A stretch of DNA of 64,000 nucleotides from a virus. The position numbers and the translations under genes are program-made. The stretch spans positions 127,967 to 191,966 of the IMG/VR virus record IMGVR_UViG_3300046777_002520, one strand, 5' to 3'. Under the pieces are notes generated by a model. The model was not told where the DNA came from and did not search any database. It worked only from the letters and a program-made list of their open reading frames with translations. The stretch's first letter is position 1; each line of letters begins with the position of its first letter. Shown in pieces: positions 4,222-47,846 of the stretch.

Positions 4222-5154
4222 ATGGCATCGGTTAATGATGATGTCAGGCTGCGCAACGAGACCTTTATTTCTTACCTGGAAACTCCGGGTATGGAGAAGC
4301 GCGCCCTGGACGCCGTGAATGACTTCACACGCTATCGTATGCGTGAAGAGGGTTTCTATCGTCGCATTCTGCCGCCCGTGCAGATCAGCAACGATGACCT
4401 CGACCGTCAGGTTGACACCGACAAGCCGGTGAAGATCGTTGACCGCGAACCGGATTCCCCGGCCGCGATCAGCATCCCCTTCGCCACGCTGCCGCTCAGC
4501 CTGTACATCCGTGGCCAGCGCTACCGCGTTAGCTTCGACCGCATCGTCACTCCTCGCTTCACCAAGGACGTTGACGAACTGCGCACCTACTACATCGACA
4601 TCCGTCAGGTGCTGTCGGACAACTCGATCAAGGACATGCTGGCTGAAGAAGACCGCAAGTTCTTGGCCGCTGTTGACGCTGGCCTGGGTGGCTCGGCTGA
4701 CGCCGTCAACCCGACCTCCGGTGTCGTCCAGTGGGAGACCCTGTACGGCGGTATCACCCGTGATACCCTCCAGGACGCTTTCAAGATTCTGCCCCGCACC
4801 ATCAGCCGCCTCGAAACCGGCACCGTGTTGCTGAACAACCTCACGATCCGCGAGATCATGAAGTTTGGCCGCGAAGAGATGGGTGGCGACTTCAGCCAGG
4901 ACGTTTTCAAGAACGGCTGGTCTGAGCAGAACTTCATGAACGCCAACTGGATCATCACCATCAAGCAGGACCTGGTGCCTAACGACTCCATGTACCTGTT
5001 CGCTGATCCCAAGTTCATGGGCAAGTCCTACGTCCTCGAAGACACCACAATGTACATCGAGCGTAAGGCTTACATGCTTGAATTCTTTGCCTACGAGACC
5101 CTGGGTGGAGCCATCGGCAACACCAACTCGCTGGCAAGAGTTGACTTTGCTTGA
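4222..5154 (+). CDS. major capsid protein (HK97-like fold, inferred)
   Basis: RBS AAGGAGGT, strongly C/G-ending codons, 310 aa. MREEGFYRRILPP N-terminal motif and ETLGGAIGNTNSLARVDF C-terminus are typical of large-phage MCPs. Followed by a strong hairpin. Confidence 0.72.
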   Translation: MASVNDDVRLRNETFISYLETPGMEKRALDAVNDFTRYRMREEGFYRRILPPVQISNDDLDRQVDTDKPVKIVDREPDSPAAISIPFATLPLSLYIRGQRYRVSFDRIVTPRFTKDVDELRTYYIDIRQVLSDNSIKDMLAEEDRKFLAAVDAGLGGSADAVNPTSGVVQWETLYGGITRDTLQDAFKILPRTISRLETGTVLLNNLTIREIMKFGREEMGGDFSQDVFKNGWSEQNFMNANWIITIKQDLVPNDSMYLFADPKFMGKSYVLEDTTMYIERKAYMLEFFAYETLGGAIGNTNSLARVDFA

Positions 5155-5633: not shown

Positions 5634-5972
5634 ATGGCTGATAGCAATTGCCTTCAAACGAAGGTGCGCAACATGAGTGGGAAGGAGGCCTTTTTCGGCT
5701 TTCTGCCTCCCCATGGCAAGCGTCTCGCTTCGGGCGAAGAATACACTTTCTTTGGTTCTCCTGAGGCCCTGTTGGCTTCTGTGACCAAGAAGCGCCAGCG
5801 CACTGCCCTGCAGAACGCTCTGGTCAGCGGCAAAGTCGTGATCGTCTCGACTCCCGCAGTCCACGCTTACGACGCCACCCTCGACGTCACCAAGACCCTT
5901 GGTGTCACGAACGGCAGCGTCACGGCTTCCGATCCCTGCTGGGGCCAATACTCCAGCTCCATCGGCAGCTAA
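5634..5972 (+). CDS. small virion protein, hypothetical
   Basis: RBS GGAGGT. Last gene before a terminator; ends YSSSIGS. Confidence 0.65.
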   Translation: MADSNCLQTKVRNMSGKEAFFGFLPPHGKRLASGEEYTFFGSPEALLASVTKKRQRTALQNALVSGKVVIVSTPAVHAYDATLDVTKTLGVTNGSVTASDPCWGQYSSSIGS

Positions 5973-5997
5973 GCTGACGGCTAAAAAAAATTCAGAG

Positions 5998-6025
5998 AGC
6001 CCACCCTTTGCAGGGTGGGCTTTTT
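5998..6025 (+). terminator. intrinsic terminator ending the head operon
   Basis: AGCCCACCCT-TTGC-AGGGTGGGCT followed by TTTT. Confidence 0.85.
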
Positions 6026-6027
6026 GC

Positions 6028-6055
6028 TTAATTGACGCAAAATAACAGGCATAAT
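6028..6055 (+). promoter_or_regulatory. cassette promoter-like motif, copy 1
   Basis: TTAATT(6028-6033)-N16-CATAAT(6050-6055), then CAGAT. Confidence 0.7.
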
Positions 6056-6118
6056 CAGATGACCGATATATAGCTGTGACAGGAGTTGCAGGTGTATCGG
6101 AAATTGAAGGAGATAGTC

Positions 6119-6361
6119 ATGAAGACTACTCTGGCCTGTGGTTCTAGGTTAGTTATTGGCACCGTTGTCAACGACTATGTCGTTGACATGCGACGGAGGC
6201 GTCGTGAGGCTCAAGAAGCCATTCTGTGGCACCTGGCCCAGAAGGGGTTACTTGAAATCGACGAGGTAATCAACCTCGTCGAGTCCAGCCGCAAGGCTGG
6301 ACCGTTCACTGGCTCTGCCATGAGGCAGGAAGCCATCGACCGCTACAAGGCGGTCGCATAA
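6119..6361 (+). CDS. small hypothetical protein, cassette 1 payload
   Basis: RBS AAGGAG then ATG 6119, 80 aa. Flanked by the promoter motif and a hairpin/T7-AGCT boundary. Confidence 0.7.
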   Translation: MKTTLACGSRLVIGTVVNDYVVDMRRRRREAQEAILWHLAQKGLLEIDEVINLVESSRKAGPFTGSAMRQEAIDRYKAVA

Positions 6362-6367
6362 CTTCAT

Positions 6368-6415
6368 AGCCCCTTAAAGCGGGGGCTTTATAAATACGCT
6401 TTTTTTAGCTATTGG
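6368..6415 (+). repeat. cassette boundary: hairpin + TTATAAATACGC + T7-AGCT-ATTGG
   Basis: AGCCCC-ttaaagcg-GGGGCT, a 12-nt spacer, then TTTTTTTAGCT at 6400-6410. Near-identical to 7130-7168. Confidence 0.7.
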
Positions 6416-6420
6416 CTGAT

Positions 6421-6448
6421 TTAATCCAAGCAACTTACAAGTCATAAT
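6421..6448 (+). promoter_or_regulatory. cassette promoter-like motif, copy 2
   Basis: TTAATC(6421-6426)-N16-CATAAT(6443-6448), then CAGAT. Confidence 0.7.
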
Positions 6449-6451
6449 CAG

Positions 6452-6589
6452 ATGCAAATCTATAATGAACTCAGTCCAGTCACCGCTGGACCACTAGAAC
6501 AAACAAGCGGTGTTTGACTCCTTGGATTCCACGCTGAATCGCGTGAAGGAGCACAGGTCCGAACCTGTGATCTAGACTTTTTTTTAGCT
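6452..6589 (+). ncRNA. candidate small structured RNA, cassette 2 payload
   Basis: No ORF over about 21 codons and no RBS-led start. Stems CTCCTT/AAGGAG enclosing CACGC/GCGTG, and CACAGGT-ccga-ACCTGTG. Ends at T8-AGCT (6578-6589). Confidence 0.45.
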
Positions 6590-6601
6590 GTCAGACGCTG
6601 C

Positions 6602-6629
6602 TTAATTCAGAGAAAAAACCAGTCATATT
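6602..6629 (+). promoter_or_regulatory. cassette promoter-like motif, copy 3
   Basis: TTAATT(6602-6607)-N16-CATATT(6624-6629), then CAGAT. Confidence 0.7.
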
Positions 6630-6703
6630 CAGATGATATAGACATACCTATTTTAGGTGTGTCGAGGCCCCGTCGCCTATTTCAAGACGGAGAGGGTTAT
6701 TTC

Positions 6704-7123
6704 ATGAACACTGGTAAAATGGCTGTGCTGTACGTTATCCTGGCTTTTGTGTTCTGCTCAGGCATATACCTGCATGTCAGCAAGCCCCAGGAGAAAGCAG
6801 AAATCCAGAGGTGGACTCTGGTGACAGACAAGACCACACACAAAGGGCAGGCCTTGACTGACCTTGACCTGATGTGGGTGATCTCCCCCAAAGGGGAGTG
6901 GTTTGTAGTTCCTGAGGCTCAGAAAACTCGCTTCAAAGCGAGCAAGAGTGGGGAGCATATCCAGCTTCCAGAATCGGCCCACCTGTGGGACCGAGTCCTG
7001 ATGGCCCCTGACAAGGCCGATTCGGCAAAGCTGAGAATGGGTCTGCCTGTGAGCAGGACCAACAGCATCAACACTGACATCGAGTCAGTGCTCATTCCTT
7101 CCTACTTTTACAGTAGGTCTTAA
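6704..7123 (+). CDS. N-terminally anchored membrane/secreted hypothetical protein, cassette 3 payload
   Basis: GGAGAGG RBS then ATG 6704. Hydrophobic stretch MAVLYVILAFVFCSGIYL. Confidence 0.7.
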   Translation: MNTGKMAVLYVILAFVFCSGIYLHVSKPQEKAEIQRWTLVTDKTTHKGQALTDLDLMWVISPKGEWFVVPEAQKTRFKASKSGEHIQLPESAHLWDRVLMAPDKADSAKLRMGLPVSRTNSINTDIESVLIPSYFYSRS

Positions 7124-7129
7124 CCCACA

Positions 7130-7171
7130 GTCCTGGCGAGGACGTTAAAGATACGCTTTTTTTTAGCTATC
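7130..7171 (+). repeat. cassette boundary: hairpin + TTAAAGATACGC + T8-AGCT
   Basis: GTCCT-ggcg-AGGAC, a spacer, ATACGC (7151-7156), T8, then AGCT (7165-7168). Confidence 0.7.
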
Positions 7172-7237
7172 AGACAAATCAGCAGACGTGGTATGATACA
7201 TAAAAGTGTATAGCTACTTACGTTAGAGGGACAGTTC

Positions 7238-8155
7238 ATGGCTGATCCATCCAGCGTCGATTGTGCGGACCAACTCATCATTCGACCCAGAATAACAAGA
7301 GTCGAAGGTCAACCTATCCTCGCCAAAGTTCCGTCCTTGCTGACCAGCCAAGGCGTCACGCCGTTTATCGAGATGGTGCTCAGGGATAGCGAAGGCCGAC
7401 CTGTCAACCTGACGAGCTGTGGGTTTAACTCCTCCAACAGTTCGTCCATAGGTTCTGGTGTCAGTGTTGTTGGCAAGCTTAGGGAGGCCATGGGCCTTTC
7501 TTCCAACCTGCCTGCCATAACCCTGGATGCAGCCGTCTGGAATGCCGAGTCTGGAACCATACGTGCGCGCGTGCCTGCCGAGGCCACGGATCTCAACCAG
7601 ATTCTGCGAGGCCAGTGGGCCGTCGTGGACAGCGACAACTCCGTGCTGTTTACCTGCCCGTTCTTCCTGTTTGTGGACCGTGGCGAGTTCGGCTCTGTCT
7701 TCAACCCCAAGGGCGTGCCCAGCCCCAGCGACATTCGTGTGTTCCTCAGGGACAGCGCTCCAGAGGACAACTACCTGCTGAACGAGCTGGAGTTTGATCT
7801 GACAGAAATCGTTGAGTCAGCGATTCGCTGCATCGATCACTTCAACAGCGCCCAGCCGCCTATTCCCCAGAAGTTTACCACCAGCAGCTTTCCCAACACG
7901 GCCATACTGCTGACTGGCATCATGGGGTATCTCTATCAGATAGCGGCCAAGCACTATCGACGCAACCACCTGCCTTACAGCGCTGGTGGTATTCAGGTCG
8001 ATGACAAGAACAAGGCTTCCGAGTACGAGCAGCTCGGTATGCAGATGGTTGCTGAATATCAGCAGTGGACCAAGAACAAGAAGGCTCAGTTCAACCTGCA
8101 GAATTTCAACGGAACACTTGGTTCAGGATACGAATACAGCGGCAGATGGAGGTAA
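7238..8155 (+). CDS. putative neck/head-tail adaptor protein with N-terminal Ig-like domain
   Basis: First gene of the tail operon. C-terminal YRRNHLPYSAGGIQVDDKNK segment resembles large-myovirus neck proteins. Inferred from position and motif. Confidence 0.5.
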   Translation: MADPSSVDCADQLIIRPRITRVEGQPILAKVPSLLTSQGVTPFIEMVLRDSEGRPVNLTSCGFNSSNSSSIGSGVSVVGKLREAMGLSSNLPAITLDAAVWNAESGTIRARVPAEATDLNQILRGQWAVVDSDNSVLFTCPFFLFVDRGEFGSVFNPKGVPSPSDIRVFLRDSAPEDNYLLNELEFDLTEIVESAIRCIDHFNSAQPPIPQKFTTSSFPNTAILLTGIMGYLYQIAAKHYRRNHLPYSAGGIQVDDKNKASEYEQLGMQMVAEYQQWTKNKKAQFNLQNFNGTLGSGYEYSGRWR

Positions 8156-8158
8156 GCC

Positions 8159-8977
8159 ATGACTGACCGCTCCAGAATAGCCAGCCCTTTTGAACGAGTC
8201 CGCATTCGCTATTCCGTGGACGGTTCCACTCGCGTGGAGTGGGACCTGTCCAGGCTTTTCACGGACCCTCAGCCCCACACGTTCACGCTGCAGGGTACTC
8301 ACTCCTCCACGGACAACACAACCTTCGCCAACATCGGCCTGCCTGCCCAGAATACCCAGGCTCTTGTGGACGATGAAAAGAGAGTGTTTGCCCAGACCCA
8401 GGACTTCTACTACAGGGTCAAGCTGGTCACACCAGTACGGACTTACTACTCCGAGATTGTCTCTGCCTTCAAGAACCTGAATTTCAGGGACTGGCGACTG
8501 GCCAGGGACGTGCTGCGCAAGGAGCAGCTCAGGCACAGCAAGTACACTTCGTTGCAGGGATTTCTCCTAAAAAGGAAACGTTACGGGTCGCGATGTACTG
8601 CCTGCACGGACTACCTGACGGATGAAGTGACCAACAGCTCATGCGCTGTATGCAACGGTACAGGCATCGTTGATGGCTATTTTGCAGCTGTTCCGTCGTT
8701 TCTTGAGCTGCCTCCCACATCTACACGTGAGGAGATGGACAACGCTCAGGCAGTAGGCACAAAGAAAGACGTCATATACCAAAACTGCAGAATGCTTGGA
8801 GAGCCGATACCTGACAGTTATGATGTCTTTGTAGACAGTGGCAGCGACAGAAGATTTATAATCCACGAGATAACTTCTTCAGCTATCATGCGTGGATACC
8901 CTGTGGCTTTTAACGTGAATGTCAGGCAGGCTAATTTTTCAGATATTGTTTACTCCATACCAATGGAGGGGACATGA
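8159..8977 (+). CDS. putative neck/head-closure protein with CxxC...CxxCxGTG Zn finger
   Basis: CTAC...CAVCNGTG motif; lies between the adaptor and tail-terminator-like genes. Confidence 0.45.
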   Translation: MTDRSRIASPFERVRIRYSVDGSTRVEWDLSRLFTDPQPHTFTLQGTHSSTDNTTFANIGLPAQNTQALVDDEKRVFAQTQDFYYRVKLVTPVRTYYSEIVSAFKNLNFRDWRLARDVLRKEQLRHSKYTSLQGFLLKRKRYGSRCTACTDYLTDEVTNSSCAVCNGTGIVDGYFAAVPSFLELPPTSTREEMDNAQAVGTKKDVIYQNCRMLGEPIPDSYDVFVDSGSDRRFIIHEITSSAIMRGYPVAFNVNVRQANFSDIVYSIPMEGT

Positions 8978-9776: not shown

Positions 9777-12467
9777 ATGGCTTACGTTCTTCCACAGGTT
9801 ACAGTATTCCAAGAGTTCAACATTGTTCCTGCCAATGCAGCAGCTCCAAGAGCTGTTCACATTACTGGCGGGCACGCTAAGCTTTTCCGTTACAGCAACG
9901 CTGACGAAAAAGCCATCATCAACCTTGGTGAATACGACAGCGTAGCCGACCAGGCTTACCTGTGGCCCGAGCGACCTGCTGGCGGCGTGGTGGATCACAC
10001 CTTCACCAAGCTGTACGTTGAAGACGCTCTTCTTGAGTACTACGTCAACAACGCCAGCTCTGGCAATGCCGTGGCTCCTGTCTCTGGCTACAAGAACCGC
10101 GTTCGCGATTCTGGCACCAGCTTCAAGACCAACACCGCCAGCTATCCCCGTTCAGCCGCCCTGTACGACCGTGACGCCAAGGTTGGCGACTACGTCTACA
10201 TTCGTGGCGTCTCTAGCGGCACCGAGTACACGCTCAACACCACGATCCGTGGTTTCGTGGGTGACGCTGTGGCCGCTGTGACTGGCGCTGCCTCCTCCGC
10301 TGGCAGCAACAAGGCCAGCCAGAGCCTGTCCACCAACATCGACATCCTCGGCCTGAAGAACTCGATCACCCTGACCGCCGACGCTTCCGGTTACAACGGC
10401 CTGGAAGACGGCGACATCGACGAGTCCTACACCGTCGAGGTGACCCAGAGCTCCATCGGCGGCGACCTGACCACAGCTCGCCTGCGCGTGACCAGCTCCA
10501 GCGGCAACGACAACCAGTTCGACGTGAACTCCACCGCGTCGGCCAGCTCTCATGCCGACGGCGAAGACATCAGCCCGAACGACCTGGTGGTCGGTCAGAA
10601 GTGGCGCGTCCGCGTGAAGCAGGCCTTCACTCCCCCGTCGGCAACCTCGGGCGGCACCTACACCGGCCTGCGCGACACCACCTACATCGTCCAAGTGACC
10701 AAGGGCGGCACCTACGCTTCCAGCCCCGAAATCACCGTCAGCACCACCACCGGCTACGACGTCGGCTCCCCTGTCGTCGTGTCGGCATCCGCCACGGCTG
10801 TCGCCGTCGGTAACTACGGTGTCACCGTCAGCTTCAACCAGACTGCCCTCTGCAAGGGCGACAAGTACTACATTGTCGTCACCGCCGCAGGTCAGGGTGC
10901 CATGAAGACCCTGATTCTGGCCGACGACCTGCCCGAAGAGCTGGAGTCCGCAGTTGACCTCGACCTGAAGCTGTACATCAAGAAGAACATCCTTGTCGAG
11001 AAGAACCTCGAAGCCGACGCCCCCAACGTCGCTTACACGGTCAGCGACACGGAGATCACCGTCCAGTCTGGCATCATGCTGCACGACAGCACCTGGACCG
11101 ACGCTGGCGCTCTGCAGCCCTTGCCGCTGAAGGGCGGCACCCTGTTCGTTGAGTACAGAGCCTGGCTTCCCGACTACGTCGCCACCGTCGAGAGCATCAC
11201 CGATCCCGCCGAGATCTCCTCGCTGCTCGGTCAGCTCAGCCCCGACAACCCGCTCTGCTGGGGCGTCTACCTGGCCCTGCAGAACGCCAACGGCCAGCCT
11301 GTGTTCTTCACATCGGTCACCGACCCTGACAACGTGGACGACTGGACCATCGCCCTCGAAGGTCTGGACGGGCAGGACCAGATCTACAACCTGGTGCCGC
11401 TGACGACCAACGAGACCGTGCTCGGCCTGTGGAAAGCCCACGTCGAGTCGCAGTCCGGTCCTGAAGTAGGCAACTGGCGCGCCGCCGTCTTCAGCATCGC
11501 CGTCACAGGCGTCAAGAAGATCCTCAGCGACGCCAACAGCGTGGACGGCAATGTCATCCTCGCCAAGCTGGCCGACGACAACACCACCTCGGGCACGCAG
11601 TACACCCTGCTGTCGGTTCCCGCCAACAACGCCAAGTTCCTCACGAAGGGCGTCAAGGCTGGCGACACCGTCCGCTACCTGTACAGCACCGACGCCTTCG
11701 GTCAGGAAACCTACAGCGAGTTCGTCGTTGACGAGGTCCTGTCCGAGTCCAGCATCCGTCTGGTGACTGGCAACGGCAGCCCCATCACCGTCGGTCAGAA
11801 GGTCGAAATCTGGCGCACCCTGGATCGCGCCGGTCGCGCAGCTGAGGCCATCGAGCAGATCGGTGCCCACAGCAGCCGCCGCGTGGTTGTCATCGCCAAC
11901 CCGACCGTGGGCCTGGAAGGCGCTACCTTCCCAGGCTACTTCGCAGCCTGCGCCGTGGCTGGTCTTCGCTCGGGCGTCCTGCCCCAGCAGGGCCTGACCA
12001 GGGTCACCATCTCCGGTATCGATGACGTTGGCGAGCTTGTCACCGAGTTGAACGGCAGCCAGCTCAACCTGATTGCCGGTGCCGGTGGTTGGATTCTCGC
12101 CAAGGACGCTACTGGCTCGATCTTCAACCGTCACGCCATCACCACCGACACGACTGACACCAACACTCGTGAAGAGGTGATTCGCGTCAACGTTGACTCG
12201 ATCTCCTACCAGTACAAGGCAGCCTTCGAGCCTTATATCGGTAGAGTCAACATCACACCTGGCACTCTCGACCTGCTTCGACAGCGCTTTGAAATGATGA
12301 CCGAAGAGCTGCGCGTCAACGGTACTCCCAACACAGGCGGTCAGCTTATCTCTGCTGAGATTGCTGACATCCGCCAGCACGCAGTGTTCAAGGACAAGGT
12401 TGTGATTCAGGCCAACCTGAACATTCCTTACCCGATGAACAACATCGAACTGAAGCTGGTTGTCTGA
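9777..12467 (+). CDS. tail sheath protein
   Basis: 896 aa with RBS GGAGGAG and strong codon bias. C-terminal sheath-like region (RVNVDSISYQYKAAFEPYIGRVNIT...QANLNIPYPMNNIELKLVV). Followed by a tube-sized gene. Confidence 0.85.
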   Translation: MAYVLPQVTVFQEFNIVPANAAAPRAVHITGGHAKLFRYSNADEKAIINLGEYDSVADQAYLWPERPAGGVVDHTFTKLYVEDALLEYYVNNASSGNAVAPVSGYKNRVRDSGTSFKTNTASYPRSAALYDRDAKVGDYVYIRGVSSGTEYTLNTTIRGFVGDAVAAVTGAASSAGSNKASQSLSTNIDILGLKNSITLTADASGYNGLEDGDIDESYTVEVTQSSIGGDLTTARLRVTSSSGNDNQFDVNSTASASSHADGEDISPNDLVVGQKWRVRVKQAFTPPSATSGGTYTGLRDTTYIVQVTKGGTYASSPEITVSTTTGYDVGSPVVVSASATAVAVGNYGVTVSFNQTALCKGDKYYIVVTAAGQGAMKTLILADDLPEELESAVDLDLKLYIKKNILVEKNLEADAPNVAYTVSDTEITVQSGIMLHDSTWTDAGALQPLPLKGGTLFVEYRAWLPDYVATVESITDPAEISSLLGQLSPDNPLCWGVYLALQNANGQPVFFTSVTDPDNVDDWTIALEGLDGQDQIYNLVPLTTNETVLGLWKAHVESQSGPEVGNWRAAVFSIAVTGVKKILSDANSVDGNVILAKLADDNTTSGTQYTLLSVPANNAKFLTKGVKAGDTVRYLYSTDAFGQETYSEFVVDEVLSESSIRLVTGNGSPITVGQKVEIWRTLDRAGRAAEAIEQIGAHSSRRVVVIANPTVGLEGATFPGYFAACAVAGLRSGVLPQQGLTRVTISGIDDVGELVTELNGSQLNLIAGAGGWILAKDATGSIFNRHAITTDTTDTNTREEVIRVNVDSISYQYKAAFEPYIGRVNITPGTLDLLRQRFEMMTEELRVNGTPNTGGQLISAEIADIRQHAVFKDKVVIQANLNIPYPMNNIELKLVV

Positions 12468-21203: not shown

Positions 21204-22813
21204 TGGCGTCAGACAACAGCATCCAGTTATACGACATTGAAGCTTACCTGGCGCTGAGTCTTCCAGGTGCTTCAAGCAGTACCAATCTGCCCCTGACGAG
21301 GTTCTCTGCCCAGTTTCCGATCAACAGCATTCCCCAAGCTAGCTGCTCGGTTGCTTTGGGTATCAATCTGGCTGATTCCAATCCGTCTGGGATACACAAC
21401 ATTCTGAGAGGGCAGCTGCAGTATCGCATACCAGCCAAGGTATATGCGAAAGTCAAACTGGCTTACGAAGAGAACAACGCTAACTTAAAGATAACTAAAG
21501 ATAAAATCTTTGATGGCAGACTTTTTGTTTTGTTTGATGGCTACATGTCTGGCTCAGGTTACAGACGCTCAGGCAGCACTATCGAGTACACGGTCTCTCT
21601 GGAGCACTGGTTGTCTGACCTGGCTGTAGCTTCTGGCATGAGCCAGGACATTCAGCCAGGAACGGCTGATGACTTTGTCTTTCCAGCCACTTACTACGAT
21701 CCTGTGCTTGTTGACGCTGGAGTTATCCTGCCAACTGACGCGGCTGAGGAGGCCTTGGCTGCGATCATCTCAGACGATGTTTGGTTTGGCATAAAAGCTT
21801 TCTTCACAGAACTGTGCTTGAAGGCTAAGCCTGTAGGTGTTGATGACATCTATCAGAGTGGAGGGTTCAGGGACAACAAGCCTGCTGCCGATGCCCTTGG
21901 AAAGTTTCTTGAGCAGAAACCTTACCAAAGCATGACGCTAAAAGGAGTAACTCCTGGCATAGCTAACTCTATACAAGACACAATCAGAGCAAAAGCTGAG
22001 AGCACGTATGTAGGAAACTCCATATGGGACAATCTGATTATCTTCTCCTCAGCCCTTTTGTTTAATGTCGTGCCTTTGATTGAAAAAGCTGTGATAGGTC
22101 AGAAGAACCCCAACCTCAGAGGCACCTACAAGACCATAGACGCTGGAGAAGTGTTCAGCTTCGACCTGTCTACGAATATGCCTAAGTTTATATCTGGCAT
22201 TGTGCTCAAGAACCATCAAGCTGCTGGGTTTACCTTCTACACGGCTCAGTCAGCCGAACCAGGACTGTCCAAAAGGAATCTGGTTGTCGGTTCTTACTTC
22301 GCAGAGAACCAAGTTGGCACTGTGGCCTTCCAGATGAGCCCTGAGTGGCTTATAGAGCCAGCCACTCCAGACGACGAACCTGTGGTACCTCCCCCCATGG
22401 CTGCGAAACAGCCAAACGGAGCAGCCCAAGCCAACGGACAGCAGGCAGCAAGGGACATGCGCAGCTTCGCTGACAAGTTTGCCCAGGCCATGTACGGCAA
22501 CGAGGTGCTCAAGTATCGAAACGGACAGCTCGCTGGCAGACTAAGGCTGGACATCTCTCCTGGATCGATAATCAAGATCGAGGCCTCGACAAATGCCACA
22601 GTCAAGAATGACAACCTGAACAACACGATTGTCGCTCACGTCGATAGCGTCGGCATATACCTGGACGCTGCTGCTGGACAAGCTTCAACGTCTTTCGGCC
22701 TGTCGAGTATCAGGTATGAGCAAGAGAACGCTTCTGGTAACTTAACTATTGACAGCAATCCTATGTACGTAGGCAGCTTCAACGGTGCTCCTTTACACTT
22801 AGGTAACCTGTGA
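21203..22813 (+). CDS. putative baseplate hub (gp27/late control D-like)
   Basis: 536 aa. C-terminal LAGRLRLDISPGSIIKI...VDSV...TSFGLSSIR pattern is typical of hub proteins; position is consistent. Confidence 0.55.
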   Translation: MASDNSIQLYDIEAYLALSLPGASSSTNLPLTRFSAQFPINSIPQASCSVALGINLADSNPSGIHNILRGQLQYRIPAKVYAKVKLAYEENNANLKITKDKIFDGRLFVLFDGYMSGSGYRRSGSTIEYTVSLEHWLSDLAVASGMSQDIQPGTADDFVFPATYYDPVLVDAGVILPTDAAEEALAAIISDDVWFGIKAFFTELCLKAKPVGVDDIYQSGGFRDNKPAADALGKFLEQKPYQSMTLKGVTPGIANSIQDTIRAKAESTYVGNSIWDNLIIFSSALLFNVVPLIEKAVIGQKNPNLRGTYKTIDAGEVFSFDLSTNMPKFISGIVLKNHQAAGFTFYTAQSAEPGLSKRNLVVGSYFAENQVGTVAFQMSPEWLIEPATPDDEPVVPPPMAAKQPNGAAQANGQQAARDMRSFADKFAQAMYGNEVLKYRNGQLAGRLRLDISPGSIIKIEASTNATVKNDNLNNTIVAHVDSVGIYLDAAAGQASTSFGLSSIRYEQENASGNLTIDSNPMYVGSFNGAPLHLGNL

Positions 22814-23643
22814 TGCCTGGACCATACGATCTTCCTGGTATTCCCAAGCCTACACAGCCCACAGGAGGCCCCAAGCCTCCGTCTGCGTTTACAGCGCAGC
22901 CTCAGATCGCTTTGGAGCCAGAGTACCAGAACGCTTACGAGACTTGGAAGTCAAACCAAGGCCCAGAAGGCAATGACATGCTGCTAAAGTCATTGCAGCC
23001 AGTTATAGACAATGCTGTCAAAGCATACGCAGGCAACGCCAGCCCCATAGTCAGAAGCAAAGCCAAGAAGATAGTCATAGACTCTCTGCCCAACTATGAC
23101 CCACAAGGCTCCAAGCTGAAGACCTACCTGTTCAACCAGCTTCAAGGCCTCAAACGCTTCTCGATGCAGCAGGGGCAGATCATCAGCGTGCCAGAGCAGG
23201 TCCAGCTCGATTACTCGAACCTCAAAAAGAAAGAGAACGAGCTTAAGGAAGAACTGGGCAGAGATCCGTCCACGGAAGAGCTGGCTGACGCGACCAACCT
23301 GTCCACCAAGAGGATCAATTACGTCAGAGGCCTCAAGACGCCGATGAGCGAAGGCTTCACGTCGCGTCCAGCTCCCAACTCTGAAGGGACTGATTACGGC
23401 GACCCATCTGTCGTGGGCGCGTCTGGCAAGCAGGACGCTGCTGCCTGGCACGACTTCGTTTACAGCAGCCTGGGCGCTACTGACAAGCTGATCATGGAGC
23501 ACACTCTGGGCCTTTATGGTAAAGGCGTGCTGTCCAACGAGCAGATAGCCAGAAAGCTGGGAGTCAGCCCTGCTGCGATAAGCATCAGAAAAAACAAAAT
23601 ACAGCAAGAGCTAGATAAACGCTATCAGCTTAACATCCTCTAA
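22813..23643 (+). CDS. sigma70-family RNA polymerase sigma factor (FliA/SigF-like regions 2-4)
   Basis: NYDPQGSKLKTYLFNQL (region 2), ELKEELGRDPSTEELADATNLS (region 3), LSNEQIARKLGVSPAAISIRKNKI (region 4 HTH). Confidence 0.85.
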   Translation: MPGPYDLPGIPKPTQPTGGPKPPSAFTAQPQIALEPEYQNAYETWKSNQGPEGNDMLLKSLQPVIDNAVKAYAGNASPIVRSKAKKIVIDSLPNYDPQGSKLKTYLFNQLQGLKRFSMQQGQIISVPEQVQLDYSNLKKKENELKEELGRDPSTEELADATNLSTKRINYVRGLKTPMSEGFTSRPAPNSEGTDYGDPSVVGASGKQDAAAWHDFVYSSLGATDKLIMEHTLGLYGKGVLSNEQIARKLGVSPAAISIRKNKIQQELDKRYQLNIL

Positions 23644-44245: not shown

Positions 44246-46264
44246 ATGGAACGCTTGTTGTTGAGGCACCAGAGAGCCCCAGGTGACATTATTGTCATGA
44301 CGGCTCTGGTGCGCGACTTGGCACTAACGTATCCAGGCAAGTACCACATAGGCGTAGACACATCTTTCAAAGAGATATGGAATAACAACCCCTACATACA
44401 GCCTATGCCCGACAAAAAGGGCGCTAAGATAGTCAATCTGACTTATGGCGAGTACATTCGCAAAGCTGCGCACGAGAAGATACACTTTCTTACGGCTTTC
44501 CACAAGAATCTGAAGACTCAGACAGGCATAGACGTACCTCTTCTGTACCCTCATCCAGACCTGCACCTGTCTCCAGCCGAGCAAAAACCGCTGCTAGAAG
44601 GGCGCTACTGGGTTGTCGTGGCTGGAGGTAAGGGAGATTTCACGACAAAGCACTGGGTTTACGAGAGATACCAGAAAGTTGTGGACATTTTGACTGGTTT
44701 GGGCATTCCAGTCGTGCAGATTGGTGGAAAAGGCAGCTATCCAACGCATTTTCACCCAGAATTGAAGAACGTAACCAGTCTTGTCGGTAAGACTGATCTC
44801 CGACAGATGTTCAGAGTGATCAACAACGCGGATGGAGTCATCTGCACCATCACTTCAGCCATGCACATAGCCGCTGCTTTGGGCAAGCCGTGCGTGGTTA
44901 CAGGGGGTGGAAGGGAAGAATGGTGGTGGGAAGCCTACAACAAGGACAATCCTGGCCTCAGTCCAGTACAGCAACTGCTTCCTGTCAGCCACAGATACCT
45001 CCACACCATTGGTAAACTCGACTGCTGCGCCAAAAAAGGGTGTTGGAAGAACAAAGTACAGAAGATGGAGGGCGATAAGAGCTTCTGTCACTACGCCGTA
45101 CCTGCCGAAAGTGGCCAGATGGTGCCATTGTGTATGGATATGATCTCGGTAGAGACGGTTGTTTCCTCTGTTTTGACTTACTACATGGACGGCACTCTGC
45201 CGTTATTGGAGGGCATGGTGCTTCCAGACATCACACAGCGTCTTGTTTTCGATAAAAACGGCGAAAAGTACAGCCTTTTCATGGTAAAAGAGACGGAAGA
45301 CGCTCGTGTAAGCCAAAAAATACTGGAAATGCCGCATCAGGACCCAGAAATAGCTAAAGGTATAAGCAAATTGCAGCCAATTCTGCAGAATAACGAGATA
45401 CCACCCCCTGCACCGACGCTTACAGAGGATCTGAACAAGAAACTCGACGTAAAAACGGCTCAAGTAGTGCCAGTCAATGCGCAAATCGTCCAAAACGCTC
45501 AGAAACCAGCGACAAGACTGATAGATTCCGACGTGATTGGCGGAAAGGTGACGCTTTTCCTGCTGCTATACGGCGACTACGCCAGTATGCACACCAGATG
45601 CCTGACTGCAATCCAGAACACTACCAACAGAAACGACCTGGACCTGAGAGTTTACTGCAACAACGTAGGCACAGAGACCGACAAACTCTGCCAGAAGATG
45701 CTCAACGCTGGCGTTATCTCGTCCATGTACAGGTCTGAGAGCAATAAGTTCAAGTATCCCTGCATGAGAGAGATGTTCCACGACCCCAACAACCCAATAA
45801 AGACGAAATGGTCGGTGTGGTTCGATGACGACACAATGTGTGATGTTGATCCTCTTTGGTTTGACAAGCTTTGTTCTGCTATTAACTCTAACGCTATTGC
45901 TGATCCTGACTTCGGTATGCTGGGACCGATCTACCACTTCTCGATGCAGCCAAAGCATTCAGATTGGTTCAAGAAGGCCGATTGGTATACAGGACGATAC
46001 TTTAGAGATAAGCTGGGGAAGCCTACAGTCAACGGAAGTAGAGTGTTCTTCGTCACTGGAAGCTTCTGGGCCATCAAAAGCGAAGCCATACAGAAGGCAA
46101 ACATTCCAGACGTAAGGCTAAGCCATAACGGTGGTGACATTTGCATAGGCGAGCAGATGTGGCAAAATGGATATACCCTTAAAAACTGGAACGGGGATAA
46201 GCGTATAGTCTGCTGGTCCAGCACCGCCCGACGCGGGGCCAGTCAGCCGCTATTCAATATATAA
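44246..46264 (+). CDS. two-domain glycosyltransferase: GT9 (heptosyltransferase-like) + GT-A (GT2-like)
   Basis: N-terminal APGDIIVMTALVRDL and ITSAMHIAAALGKPCVV (GT9 pattern); C-terminal WSVWFDDDT (DxD) and HNGGDICIG. Confidence 0.8.
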   Translation: MERLLLRHQRAPGDIIVMTALVRDLALTYPGKYHIGVDTSFKEIWNNNPYIQPMPDKKGAKIVNLTYGEYIRKAAHEKIHFLTAFHKNLKTQTGIDVPLLYPHPDLHLSPAEQKPLLEGRYWVVVAGGKGDFTTKHWVYERYQKVVDILTGLGIPVVQIGGKGSYPTHFHPELKNVTSLVGKTDLRQMFRVINNADGVICTITSAMHIAAALGKPCVVTGGGREEWWWEAYNKDNPGLSPVQQLLPVSHRYLHTIGKLDCCAKKGCWKNKVQKMEGDKSFCHYAVPAESGQMVPLCMDMISVETVVSSVLTYYMDGTLPLLEGMVLPDITQRLVFDKNGEKYSLFMVKETEDARVSQKILEMPHQDPEIAKGISKLQPILQNNEIPPPAPTLTEDLNKKLDVKTAQVVPVNAQIVQNAQKPATRLIDSDVIGGKVTLFLLLYGDYASMHTRCLTAIQNTTNRNDLDLRVYCNNVGTETDKLCQKMLNAGVISSMYRSESNKFKYPCMREMFHDPNNPIKTKWSVWFDDDTMCDVDPLWFDKLCSAINSNAIADPDFGMLGPIYHFSMQPKHSDWFKKADWYTGRYFRDKLGKPTVNGSRVFFVTGSFWAIKSEAIQKANIPDVRLSHNGGDICIGEQMWQNGYTLKNWNGDKRIVCWSSTARRGASQPLFNI

Positions 46265-47054: not shown

Positions 47055-47082
47055 TTAATTCAGCACAAAAACACGTCATACT
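47055..47082 (+). promoter_or_regulatory. cassette promoter-like motif, copy 4
   Basis: TTAATT(47055-47060)-N16-CATACT(47077-47082); shares CTGCTTAATTCAG with copy 3. Confidence 0.7.
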
Positions 47083-47084
47083 AA

Positions 47085-47456
47085 TATGAATGCCAATTAG
47101 CTTTGCTACGACAGCAACAACCGTTGAGCCACGTCGGCGGTCTAGTTGCACGATAGCGCGCAGTTGGTATTACATTACCTGTAATGATTGCAGGAGGTTC
47201 TCACACGCCAGAGTTGTGAGCGGTTGCCGCTACGAGACAGCGAACGTTACCTGTGGCGCATTACACAGGAGGTACTGACGGCTACCAAAACGCAGGTCAT
47301 GCTTCGGTTGCTTCTCTATTTGCAACCGATCATGCATAGTAGAAATAGAGAGGTGTAACCCGCACTGCGTTAAATGGGGGACCGTGAAACTCGGTACTAC
47401 AAGACCAGCAGGCTGACGCATATATTGCGTCGGCTTTGCTGGTTTTGTTTTTAGCT
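47085..47456 (+). ncRNA. candidate ~370-nt structured non-coding RNA with pseudoknot
   Basis: Own promoter motif, multiple stems, loop TTCTCTATTT (47312-47321) complementary to AAATAGAGAG (47343-47352), a ~20-bp terminal hairpin (47401-47446), then T5-AGCT. Confidence 0.55.
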
Positions 47457-47466
47457 ATGGCCTGAA

Positions 47467-47494
47467 TAAATCCACACGGATTTCAGGTCATAAT
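47467..47494 (+). promoter_or_regulatory. cassette promoter-like motif, copy 5
   Basis: TAAATC(47467-47472)-N16-CATAAT(47489-47494). Confidence 0.65.
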
Positions 47495-47535
47495 CTATTG
47501 GTGTTGTATTATCTAGCCCACAGCCAGGAGGCGAC

Positions 47536-47697
47536 ATGAAAGCTATGGTAATGAAAAGCAAAGTTGTAGTCGGCAGGATTCAGACTCAATTGACCGCAAC
47601 CCAGCAGCGGCTGCTGGATTTGGGCGTGTCACTACGGCCGATTGTCTTTACCGCTAACGGCGGTAAACGGCGCTACTTGCGCCAGTTATGCAAATAA
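47536..47697 (+). CDS. 53-aa basic hypothetical protein (not in ORF track), cassette payload
   Basis: RBS AGGAGG then ATG; MKAMVMKSKVVVGRIQTQLTATQQRLLDLGVSLRPIVFTANGGKRRYLRQLCK; followed by a terminator. Confidence 0.65.
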   Translation: MKAMVMKSKVVVGRIQTQLTATQQRLLDLGVSLRPIVFTANGGKRRYLRQLCK

Positions 47698-47715
47698 GCA
47701 ATAACGAGGATTTTC

Positions 47716-47772
47716 CTCACCACCCGCATCTCCCCTAAGGAGTTGCGGGTTTGGTGGGGTTTTTCCTTAGCT
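47716..47772 (+). terminator. long imperfect hairpin + T-run, ending in TTAGCT boundary
   Basis: CTCACCA-CCCGCA-t-CTCC-cctaa-GGAG-t-TGCGGG-tt-TGGTGGG, then TTTTT and CCTTAGCTATTGG. Confidence 0.7.
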
Positions 47773-47846
47773 ATTGGAAAACTCCTGTAGGAAAGCTCCT
47801 GTAAATAAGTTAGGATAGCCCTGGGTCTTTTCAGAAAGGAACAACC

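Follow-up and report, generated by a model that had tools for sequence, protein, structure and literature searches.

Shuffling of accessory genes at shared promoter/terminator boundaries is a route that phages are already known to take. Morons, described by Hendrix and colleagues in lambdoid and other tailed phages, are autonomous promoter–gene–terminator units found between genes that are adjacent in relatives. A second system is formed by the promoter-early stem-loop (PeSL) cassettes of the T4-type phages RB49/phi1, T4/PST and KVP40/nt-1, in which composite promoter/stem-loop motifs, about 50 copies per genome, are repeated intergenically beside ORFans in hyperplastic regions (PMC2839356, PMC4122927). 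Each PeSL cassette carries its own terminator and its own promoter, of the early class and with a sequence at or very near the host sigma-70 consensus. The indels and replacements that separate close relatives coincide with the motifs, crossing over has been proposed to take place in the AT-rich segment ahead of the −35 box, and the criteria for a PeSL include excised mini-circles with one chimeric motif and demonstrated promoter and terminator activity (PMC2839356, PMC4122927). Is a comparable process at work in a phage that is not T4-like? Here we analyse a stretch of 64,000 nucleotides (the window), the final 64 kb (positions 127,967 to 191,966) of the IMG/VR virus record IMGVR_UViG_3300046777_002520, in which three small cassettes follow one another between the genes named here p112 and p305. 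These cassettes are likely to be a moron array with PeSL-like composite terminator–promoter modules, shuffled at shared boundaries in a slot at the terminator between the head-gene block and the next virion-gene operon.

Three cassettes between two virion genes

The original prediction had put the cassettes between head and tail genes, and the slot indeed lies between two virion genes (features are on the + strand unless stated): p112 (5634..5972), the upstream conserved flank and final gene of the head-gene block, which adjoins the gene for the major capsid protein (MCP) in most of 80 related loci, and p305 (7238..8155), the downstream flank conserved in the related loci. Each unit starts with a predicted promoter: P1 at 6028..6061 (TTAATT at 6028-6033, 16 nt, CATAAT at 6050-6055, then CAGATG), P2 at 6421..6454 (TTAATC at 6421-6426, 16 nt, CATAAT at 6443-6448, CAGATG) and P3 at 6602..6635 (TTAATT at 6602-6607, 16 nt, CATATT at 6624-6629, CAGATG). 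P1 is followed by a conserved open reading frame (ORF) for an 80-aa ORFan protein (6119..6361) and P2 by an RNA of ~125 nt without an ORF, ending in T8 (6455..6585). Downstream of P3 come a structured 5' leader conserved in relatives (6636..6703), with two hairpins of which the second adjoins the Shine–Dalgarno (SD) sequence, and a conserved ORF for a 139-aa ORFan, predicted to be a single-pass membrane protein (6704..7123). By sequence and fold, unit 1 ends (6368..6415) in a hairpin at 6368-6387, a 12-nt spacer, T7 at 6400-6406 and the tail AGCTATTGG, and unit 3 (7130..7173) in a hairpin at 7130-7143, a 13-nt spacer, T8 at 7157-7164 and the tail AGCTATCAG. The boundary between units 2 and 3 (6578..6594), located by pattern search and by the junction table discussed below, is T8 (6578-6585) followed by AGCTGTCAG; here the T-run lies 8 nt from the small hairpin.

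Most elements of this layout had been read from the letters beforehand. TTAATY-N16-CATAWT-CAGAT(G) at 6028, 6421 and 6602 and T7-8-AGCT at 6400, 6578 and 7157 were recovered directly, and neither motif is a chance occurrence: a pattern search of the window returned three exact and two one-mismatch promoter sites (the latter at 47055 and 47467) against 0.15 expected from shuffles, and T6-AGCT was found at three sites, all of them unit ends, against 0.06 expected. The assignment of one payload to each unit (80-aa protein, ORF-less RNA, membrane protein) likewise stands, with the membrane helix as a prediction, as does the claim that the T-runs of units 1 and 3 lie about 12 nt from the stem, in a non-canonical position. 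The proposed inverted T8-AGC copy at the left edge is also present; it extends over 5973..5990 on the minus strand, where it reads T8-AGCCGTCAG. This tail variant also occurs on the coding strand in one relative, L007, and is consistent with the family; another, L004, has a AGCTATCGA-type sequence at the position of the inverted copy. Between this copy and P1 stands the canonical terminator that ends the head operon (5999..6025; 8-bp GC stem and T5, -31.3 kcal/mol, z -5.5), which is flanked by an A8 run and is potentially bidirectional.

Variable content of the slot

Relatives were collected as 80 related loci fetched via the MCP, with further near relatives obtained via the payload proteins; their loci are labelled L### and two related genomes G001 and G002. 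The gap between p112 and p305 measures ~155 bp in L005/6/13 (MCP 96%), where it holds terminator and leader only, and about 170-300 bp in many distant relatives; p112 and p305 are neighbours in these phages, and the three units are an insertion between them. L007 has two unrelated ORFs in the slot, with boundaries of the same type, and L008-12 have one large unrelated gene. The closest subclade contains five array types: units 1, 2 and 3 (window); units 1 and 2 with a diverged unit 3 (L109); units 1 and 3 (L108, L134); and units 1 and 3 followed by either a 58-aa ORF (L004, L132) or a 66-aa ORF (L104, L105). The unit-2 RNA is found in L109 (95% identity) and L135 and is absent from L004, L104 and L108. 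Upstream of p305, every array type keeps a AGCTATCAGACAAATC tail and TGGTATGAT (7189..7197 in the window), a conserved extended −10-like element that would serve the tail-side operon; tail and box are there whether the last cassette is unit 3, the 58-aa unit or the 66-aa unit. The original prediction had proposed payload exchange, and the test it set for its own refutation does not refute it: content at the locus differs among relatives, and breakpoints in divergence fall at the boundaries.

Breakpoints, joints and the proposed mechanism

Where exactly do relatives begin to differ? Compared with the window, the near-identical relative L109 is 95-100% identical in p112, the promoters, the unit-2 RNA, the unit-3 leader, the terminators and p305; its unit-1 leader and coding sequence (CDS) are 80-81% identical, and its unit-3 CDS is a replacement allele with 31-40% amino acid identity. 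A 30-nt mismatch profile gives 0-3 for flanks and regulatory modules, 4-11 for ~6080-6320 and 8-28 for ~6690-7129, returning to 0-1 in the terminator; the shifts are abrupt and coincide with the leader and the stop codon. The unit 1 end is 98-100% identical in L004, L104, L108 and L109, with a unit-1 CDS at 66-82%; in L004, terminator and tail are 100% identical over 45 nt next to a CDS alignable only in part (72%). Whole cassettes are joined elsewhere. Across 25 tabulated junctions, the bases left of the T-run always go with the upstream payload and those starting at AGCTAT with the downstream unit, which places the cassette joint inside T7-8-AGCTAT.

Modules are also common to unrelated payloads. 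The unit-3 terminator type, a 5-6-bp GTCCT stem with a 12-13-nt spacer from GT[T]AAA, T7-8 and the same tail, closes the unrelated 58-aa unit (unit C) of L004 and L132, with a compensatory change in the stem, as well as two unrelated ORFs of G002, which lie in an array of five cassettes at a different locus. In L104, the 66-aa cassette ends in a terminator that has a homologue in the genome of our phage itself, at 97.7 kb, behind an unrelated gene.

Could these be ordinary promoters and terminators of the clade, with illegitimate recombination and divergence changing the slot and the boundaries having no role in exchange? Such regulatory punctuation would fit the clade-wide conservation of the promoter class and the tail, also at non-variable positions and before ordinary genes, the constant order of unit 1 then unit 3 in the subclade, and the fact that no junctions or circles were seen in assembled contigs. 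However, every variant array has intact modules and joints within a shared 13-17 nt, regulatory modules remain 97-100% identical beside payloads that are 81% identical or replaced, and terminator modules homologous to one another close unrelated payloads at separate loci. Intact modules, conserved boundaries and shared terminators are not what random breakpoints would give, and we judge this explanation unlikely.

The moron array with PeSL-like modules would work as follows. The slot would be a hyperplastic accessory-gene site at the terminator between the head-gene block and the next virion-gene operon, and its units would share one plan: boundary tail, promoter (a CTTAAT-like box, 16 nt, CATAWT), leader, payload, hairpin and T7-8. 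Each promoter would give its own short transcript and each hairpin/T-run module would end it, so that separate transcripts would insulate the units from one another and from the late operons. Since copies of the modules recur from one cassette to the next, at further loci and among related phages, they amount to portable homology. Recombination within them would delete, insert or replace whole cassettes, with T7-8-AGCTAT as the joint, and recombination in leader and terminator would exchange payload alleles. Promoter and terminator activity, expression timing, the polymerase that reads the units and the mechanism of recombination are what we infer here from sequence features.

Several points weigh against this mechanism. 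The identity shared at the joint, ~13-17 nt, is short for classical homologous recombination, and Pfam profiles find no RecA-type recombinase in the genome. The pattern of arrays could also have arisen from a long ancestral array by deletions only; such a history, however, fails to account for the replaced allele of L109 and for modules common to unrelated genes. The payload CDS have a GC content of 52-55%, against 54-58% in the flanks and 52.5% in the genome, so that they bear no sign of foreign origin. The promoters match the E. coli sigma-70 consensus at 8 of 12 positions, the −35-like box matches TTGACA at three of six, and a generic sigma-70 scan calls none of the cassette promoters. The ends of units 1 and 3 do not conform to canonical intrinsic terminators, with T-runs 12-13 nt off the hairpin, and RNAfold gives no convincing closing helix for either. 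Lastly, assembled (Logan) metatranscriptome contigs cover 5746-5978 only and touch p112 alone; the absence of joints among the contigs speaks neither for nor against exchange. The contigs come from two lake/river studies and are 99-100% identical to p112 over its 3' half. One of them ends at 5978, just short of the terminator, and so hints weakly at transcription of the head operon as far as this point.

A compact class of predicted promoters

A weight matrix was built from ten promoter copies. Across the 192 kb it recognises only seven sites, scoring 14-53 bits (47.6 for P1, 44.7 for P2, 53.1 for P3), with shuffled genomes reaching at most 10.1 bits. Promoters close to the sigma-70 consensus are scarce in the genome, which has five loose matches. 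Besides the three cassette promoters and the two one-mismatch copies, these include genome positions 44001 and 95176, outside the window. All seven precede small accessory units, and three of the seven units have no ORF: unit 2, ~370 nt at window 47085-47450, and genome 95204-95290, a hairpin-rich leader or RNA of ~90 nt. From its sequence distribution, CTWAAT-N16-17-CATAWT appears to be a compact class that flags accessory protein and RNA genes. In phages at 65-70% MCP identity the promoter reads CTAAATA, an A-rich spacer and GGCATATT, with the same tail, and the cassettes marked in this way lie between the p305 and p272 homologues.

At genome 44001-45084 and 95176-95320, the promoter copy is followed at once by a hairpin and T5-6, and then by an SD sequence and a small membrane-protein ORF. 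Both leaders look attenuator-like, and the first of these units ends in T8-AGCTATCAG at 45073.

A T4-type MotA box was considered for the sequence TGCTTAA, upstream of the −35-like box. The T4 MotA box ends about 12 nt before the −10 element; TGCTTAA ends 19 nt before it and is missing from P2 and from distant relatives, and the idea was dropped.

Which polymerase might read these promoters? A 277-aa protein (window 22810-23643) matches Sigma70_r3 above the Pfam cut-off and has a C-terminal helix-turn-helix, with no sigma region 2 found by a PF04542 profile search, and a 635-aa protein (genome 112746-114653) matches RNA_pol_Rpb1_5 (E 1e-16). It follows from these two matches that the phage has genes for a sigma-like factor and, at least in part, for a multisubunit RNA polymerase (RNAP). 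In the PF00940 profile search for a T7-type RNAP, the positive control itself gave no match.

The boundary tail

The tail AGCTATYRG stands behind a T-run at window positions 6400, 6578, 7157, 47448 and 47760 and at genome positions 45073 and 97778. How general is it in the clade? In an unbiased sample consisting of the own genome and the 80 MCP-anchored loci (1.2 Mb), AGCTAT comes next after 16 of 57 distinct strong terminators on the coding strand, with AGATAT after four of the 57, and after one of 22 on the other strand. Five related genomes contain 22 matches to T6-AGCTAT, of which 21 are on the coding strand, and none to the reversed pattern. Across 42 distinct tail sites the three positions past the hexamer read CAG or TGG, position 9 is G in 36, and the T-run is 7-8 nt in 41. 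Forty of the sites have a hairpin, which is adjacent at 22 and 11-13 nt off at 11.

This regularity invites the idea of a site-specific system, in which T7-8-AGCTATYRG, usually next to a hairpin, would be the recognition and crossover site of an unrecognised phage enzyme (a recombinase, a nuclease or something transposase-like), with excision and insertion of an integron- or IS200/605-like kind. Whole-cassette joints do fall exactly within the 13-17-nt element, its conservation continues for three nucleotides past the hexamer and includes the length of the T-run, and it follows a large number of unrelated hairpins, in phages with no more than ~65% MCP identity, and occurs even where it is not next to the hairpin. 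Against this, Phage_integrase (PF00589), Resolvase and Y1_Tnp have no match in the 93%-complete genome, in searches whose positive controls matched (14 of 14 for PF00589). The payload-allele breakpoints, at leader and stop codon, lie off the motif, which is also found directly before the SD sequence and start codon of ordinary genes, and about two thirds of strong terminators have no such motif. A site-specific system is therefore very improbable.

The T-run was also considered as a fixed UP element of the next promoter, from which it is spaced by 13-17 nt to the −35-like box at the cassette promoters. Before p305, however, it lies 27 nt from the −10, and elsewhere the motif stands directly before an SD sequence, so that it is not a constant part of a promoter. 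A more speculative reading, which we find doubtful, is that T7-8-AGCTATYRG is a dedicated signal of the clade and not a passive tail of the terminator, either for termination or release by the phage RNAP with its sigma-like factor or as the recognition or crossover site of an unrecognised recombination enzyme, and that the non-sigma-70 promoter class is the cognate one of the phage holoenzyme. If this were true, the cassette junctions would be sequence-specific, and CTWAAT-N16-17-CATAWT would be the phage-holoenzyme promoter reserved for its own group of accessory genes, both protein-coding and RNA. The clade-specific terminator tail also poses a small question about termination signals.

Payloads

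Alignment of the 80-aa protein with its six homologues (56-89% identity) leaves 37 columns invariant, and the 139-aa protein has homologues at 61-75% and one at 33%, with 26 invariant columns; because of these columns, both ORFs are, judged by sequence, real genes under constraint. The 80-aa protein is predicted to be a three-helix bundle (model pLDDT 82), and the 139-aa protein (pLDDT 82.5) to have an N-terminal membrane helix at residues 3-25 and, after it, an alpha/beta domain. Neither has a Pfam match above cut-off, a PHROG match or a Foldseek-PDB match at E<=0.001. Matches of the 80-aa protein over 33 aa at 45% in unrelated 25-50-kb contigs were too weak and were not used.

Unit 2 contains no + strand ORF of at least 30 aa in 6455-6585, and its 21-codon frame is shortened to ATG-TAA in L109 and L135. 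The RNA is predicted to fold into a multibranch structure with a minimum free energy (MFE) of -40.6 kcal/mol (z -3.2 against shuffles), in which a 5-bp helix closes 2 nt before U8. It matches no Rfam family, at gathering or at E<=1; the sub-threshold matches are leader/terminator-like and fall on 5953-6033 only. Exact-pattern scans of viral and metagenome contigs returned no further copies for covariation, so that the structure is based on one fold (z -3.2) and two near-identical copies. Complementarity to the phage genome is limited to 10-14-nt matches at chance level.

The unit-3 leader is 91-100% identical in relatives whose CDS is at 69-80%. An 8-bp hairpin is kept in seven of seven sequences, and a second hairpin shows one compensatory double change. 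As to function, the payloads probably serve in host takeover, exclusion or conflict.

The phage and its clade

The phage is an uncultured freshwater myovirus. Its record measures 192 kb (93% complete, GC 52.5%), and the sequencing runs containing the stretch are freshwater and lake metagenomes. The MCP (4222-5154) matches PHROG 2522 and the tail sheath (9777-12467) PHROG 279. Among cultured phages the best MCP matches reach only 32% identity, to Vibrio phages and to Salmonella phage Arash, an orphan phage according to its description. A blastn search with the locus found no match among 50,697 phage records. The clade is one of large uncultured freshwater myoviruses, about 180-230 kb, unrelated to T4-type phages.

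Other cassette loci

The window has another cassette array at 47055-47800, its second, with promoters of the class described above. The unit at 47055 is the ORF-less one of ~370 nt, with a -40 kcal/mol terminator and T5-AGCTATGG; the unit at 47467 encodes 53 aa (ORF at 47537-47698), and its terminator carries a CCTTAGCTATTGG tail. In the sister phage G001 (IMGVR_UViG_3300021594_000641; MCP 95%), the equivalent slot holds other content and the right-hand boundary is conserved. This content is a mini-CRISPR-like array (L136:700-1200, minus strand) of five 29-30-nt repeats, the last degenerate, with a 60-62-nt period, behind a cassette-type promoter. In three IMG/VR contigs its repeat, together with a conserved leader of ~65 nt, makes up three arrays per genome, and no protospacers were found among the sequences searched.

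The array of G002 (L124-L130, about 104.6-110.3 kb of its record) has five small cassettes, whose unrelated ORFs encode 105-265 aa. Three of its 28-nt promoters are identical and two are variants, a GGAGACGTCTCC palindrome immediately precedes the −35-like box at two of the promoters, and each cassette closes with T6-8-AGCTATCA. Another variable point may lie after p305: the window has a 272-aa gene (8159-8977) there, and L109:3536-6191 instead has a long ORF (1040 aa, running off the end of the locus).

Comparison with known systems

The original prediction had offered an integron- or moron-like system, and it is the moron-like half that holds, with exchange at the boundaries. The array resembles an integron in its tandem small single-payload units and in a boundary element recurring beside a hairpin; unlike an integron, it has no IntI-type recombinase, its boundaries contain no attC-like imperfect inverted repeat, and its units have their own promoters in place of a common Pc. 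Taken together, these three differences mean that it is not an integron. The likeness to morons is closer, with a promoter and terminator (here at the sequence level) round one gene and insertion between p112 and p305. In contrast to morons, the base composition of the units does not deviate, there is no integrase and no sign of a temperate lifestyle or of expression from a lysogen, and the units stand in arrays with shared boundary modules and not as single insertions.

With PeSLs, which are the closest system described, the locus shares a repeated intergenic promoter and stem-loop motif (three in the slot, more at window 47055/47467 and genome 44001/95176), ORFan payloads in a slot of variable content, and insertions, deletions and replacements between close relatives that map to the motifs. 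It differs from them in that this phage is not T4-like (MCP 32% identical to the best cultured match) and encodes an RNAP subunit and a sigma-like protein, in a promoter that is not the sigma-70 consensus (of E. coli), in having seven promoter copies per genome and not about 50, in the conserved AGCTATYRG tail after a fixed T7-8, and in payloads some of which are RNA only. Particular to this case are its clade and class of promoter, a joint fixed at T7-8-AGCTATYRG, and payloads that consist of RNA only. PeSL/moron-type shuffling would be extended beyond the T4-like phages, to a clade of RNAP- and sigma-encoding freshwater myoviruses. The locus provides a clean natural data set, with five array types, one 13-17-nt joint and allele swaps bounded by leader and terminator, and the promoter class would offer a practical way to locate payloads related to conflict in genomes of the clade.

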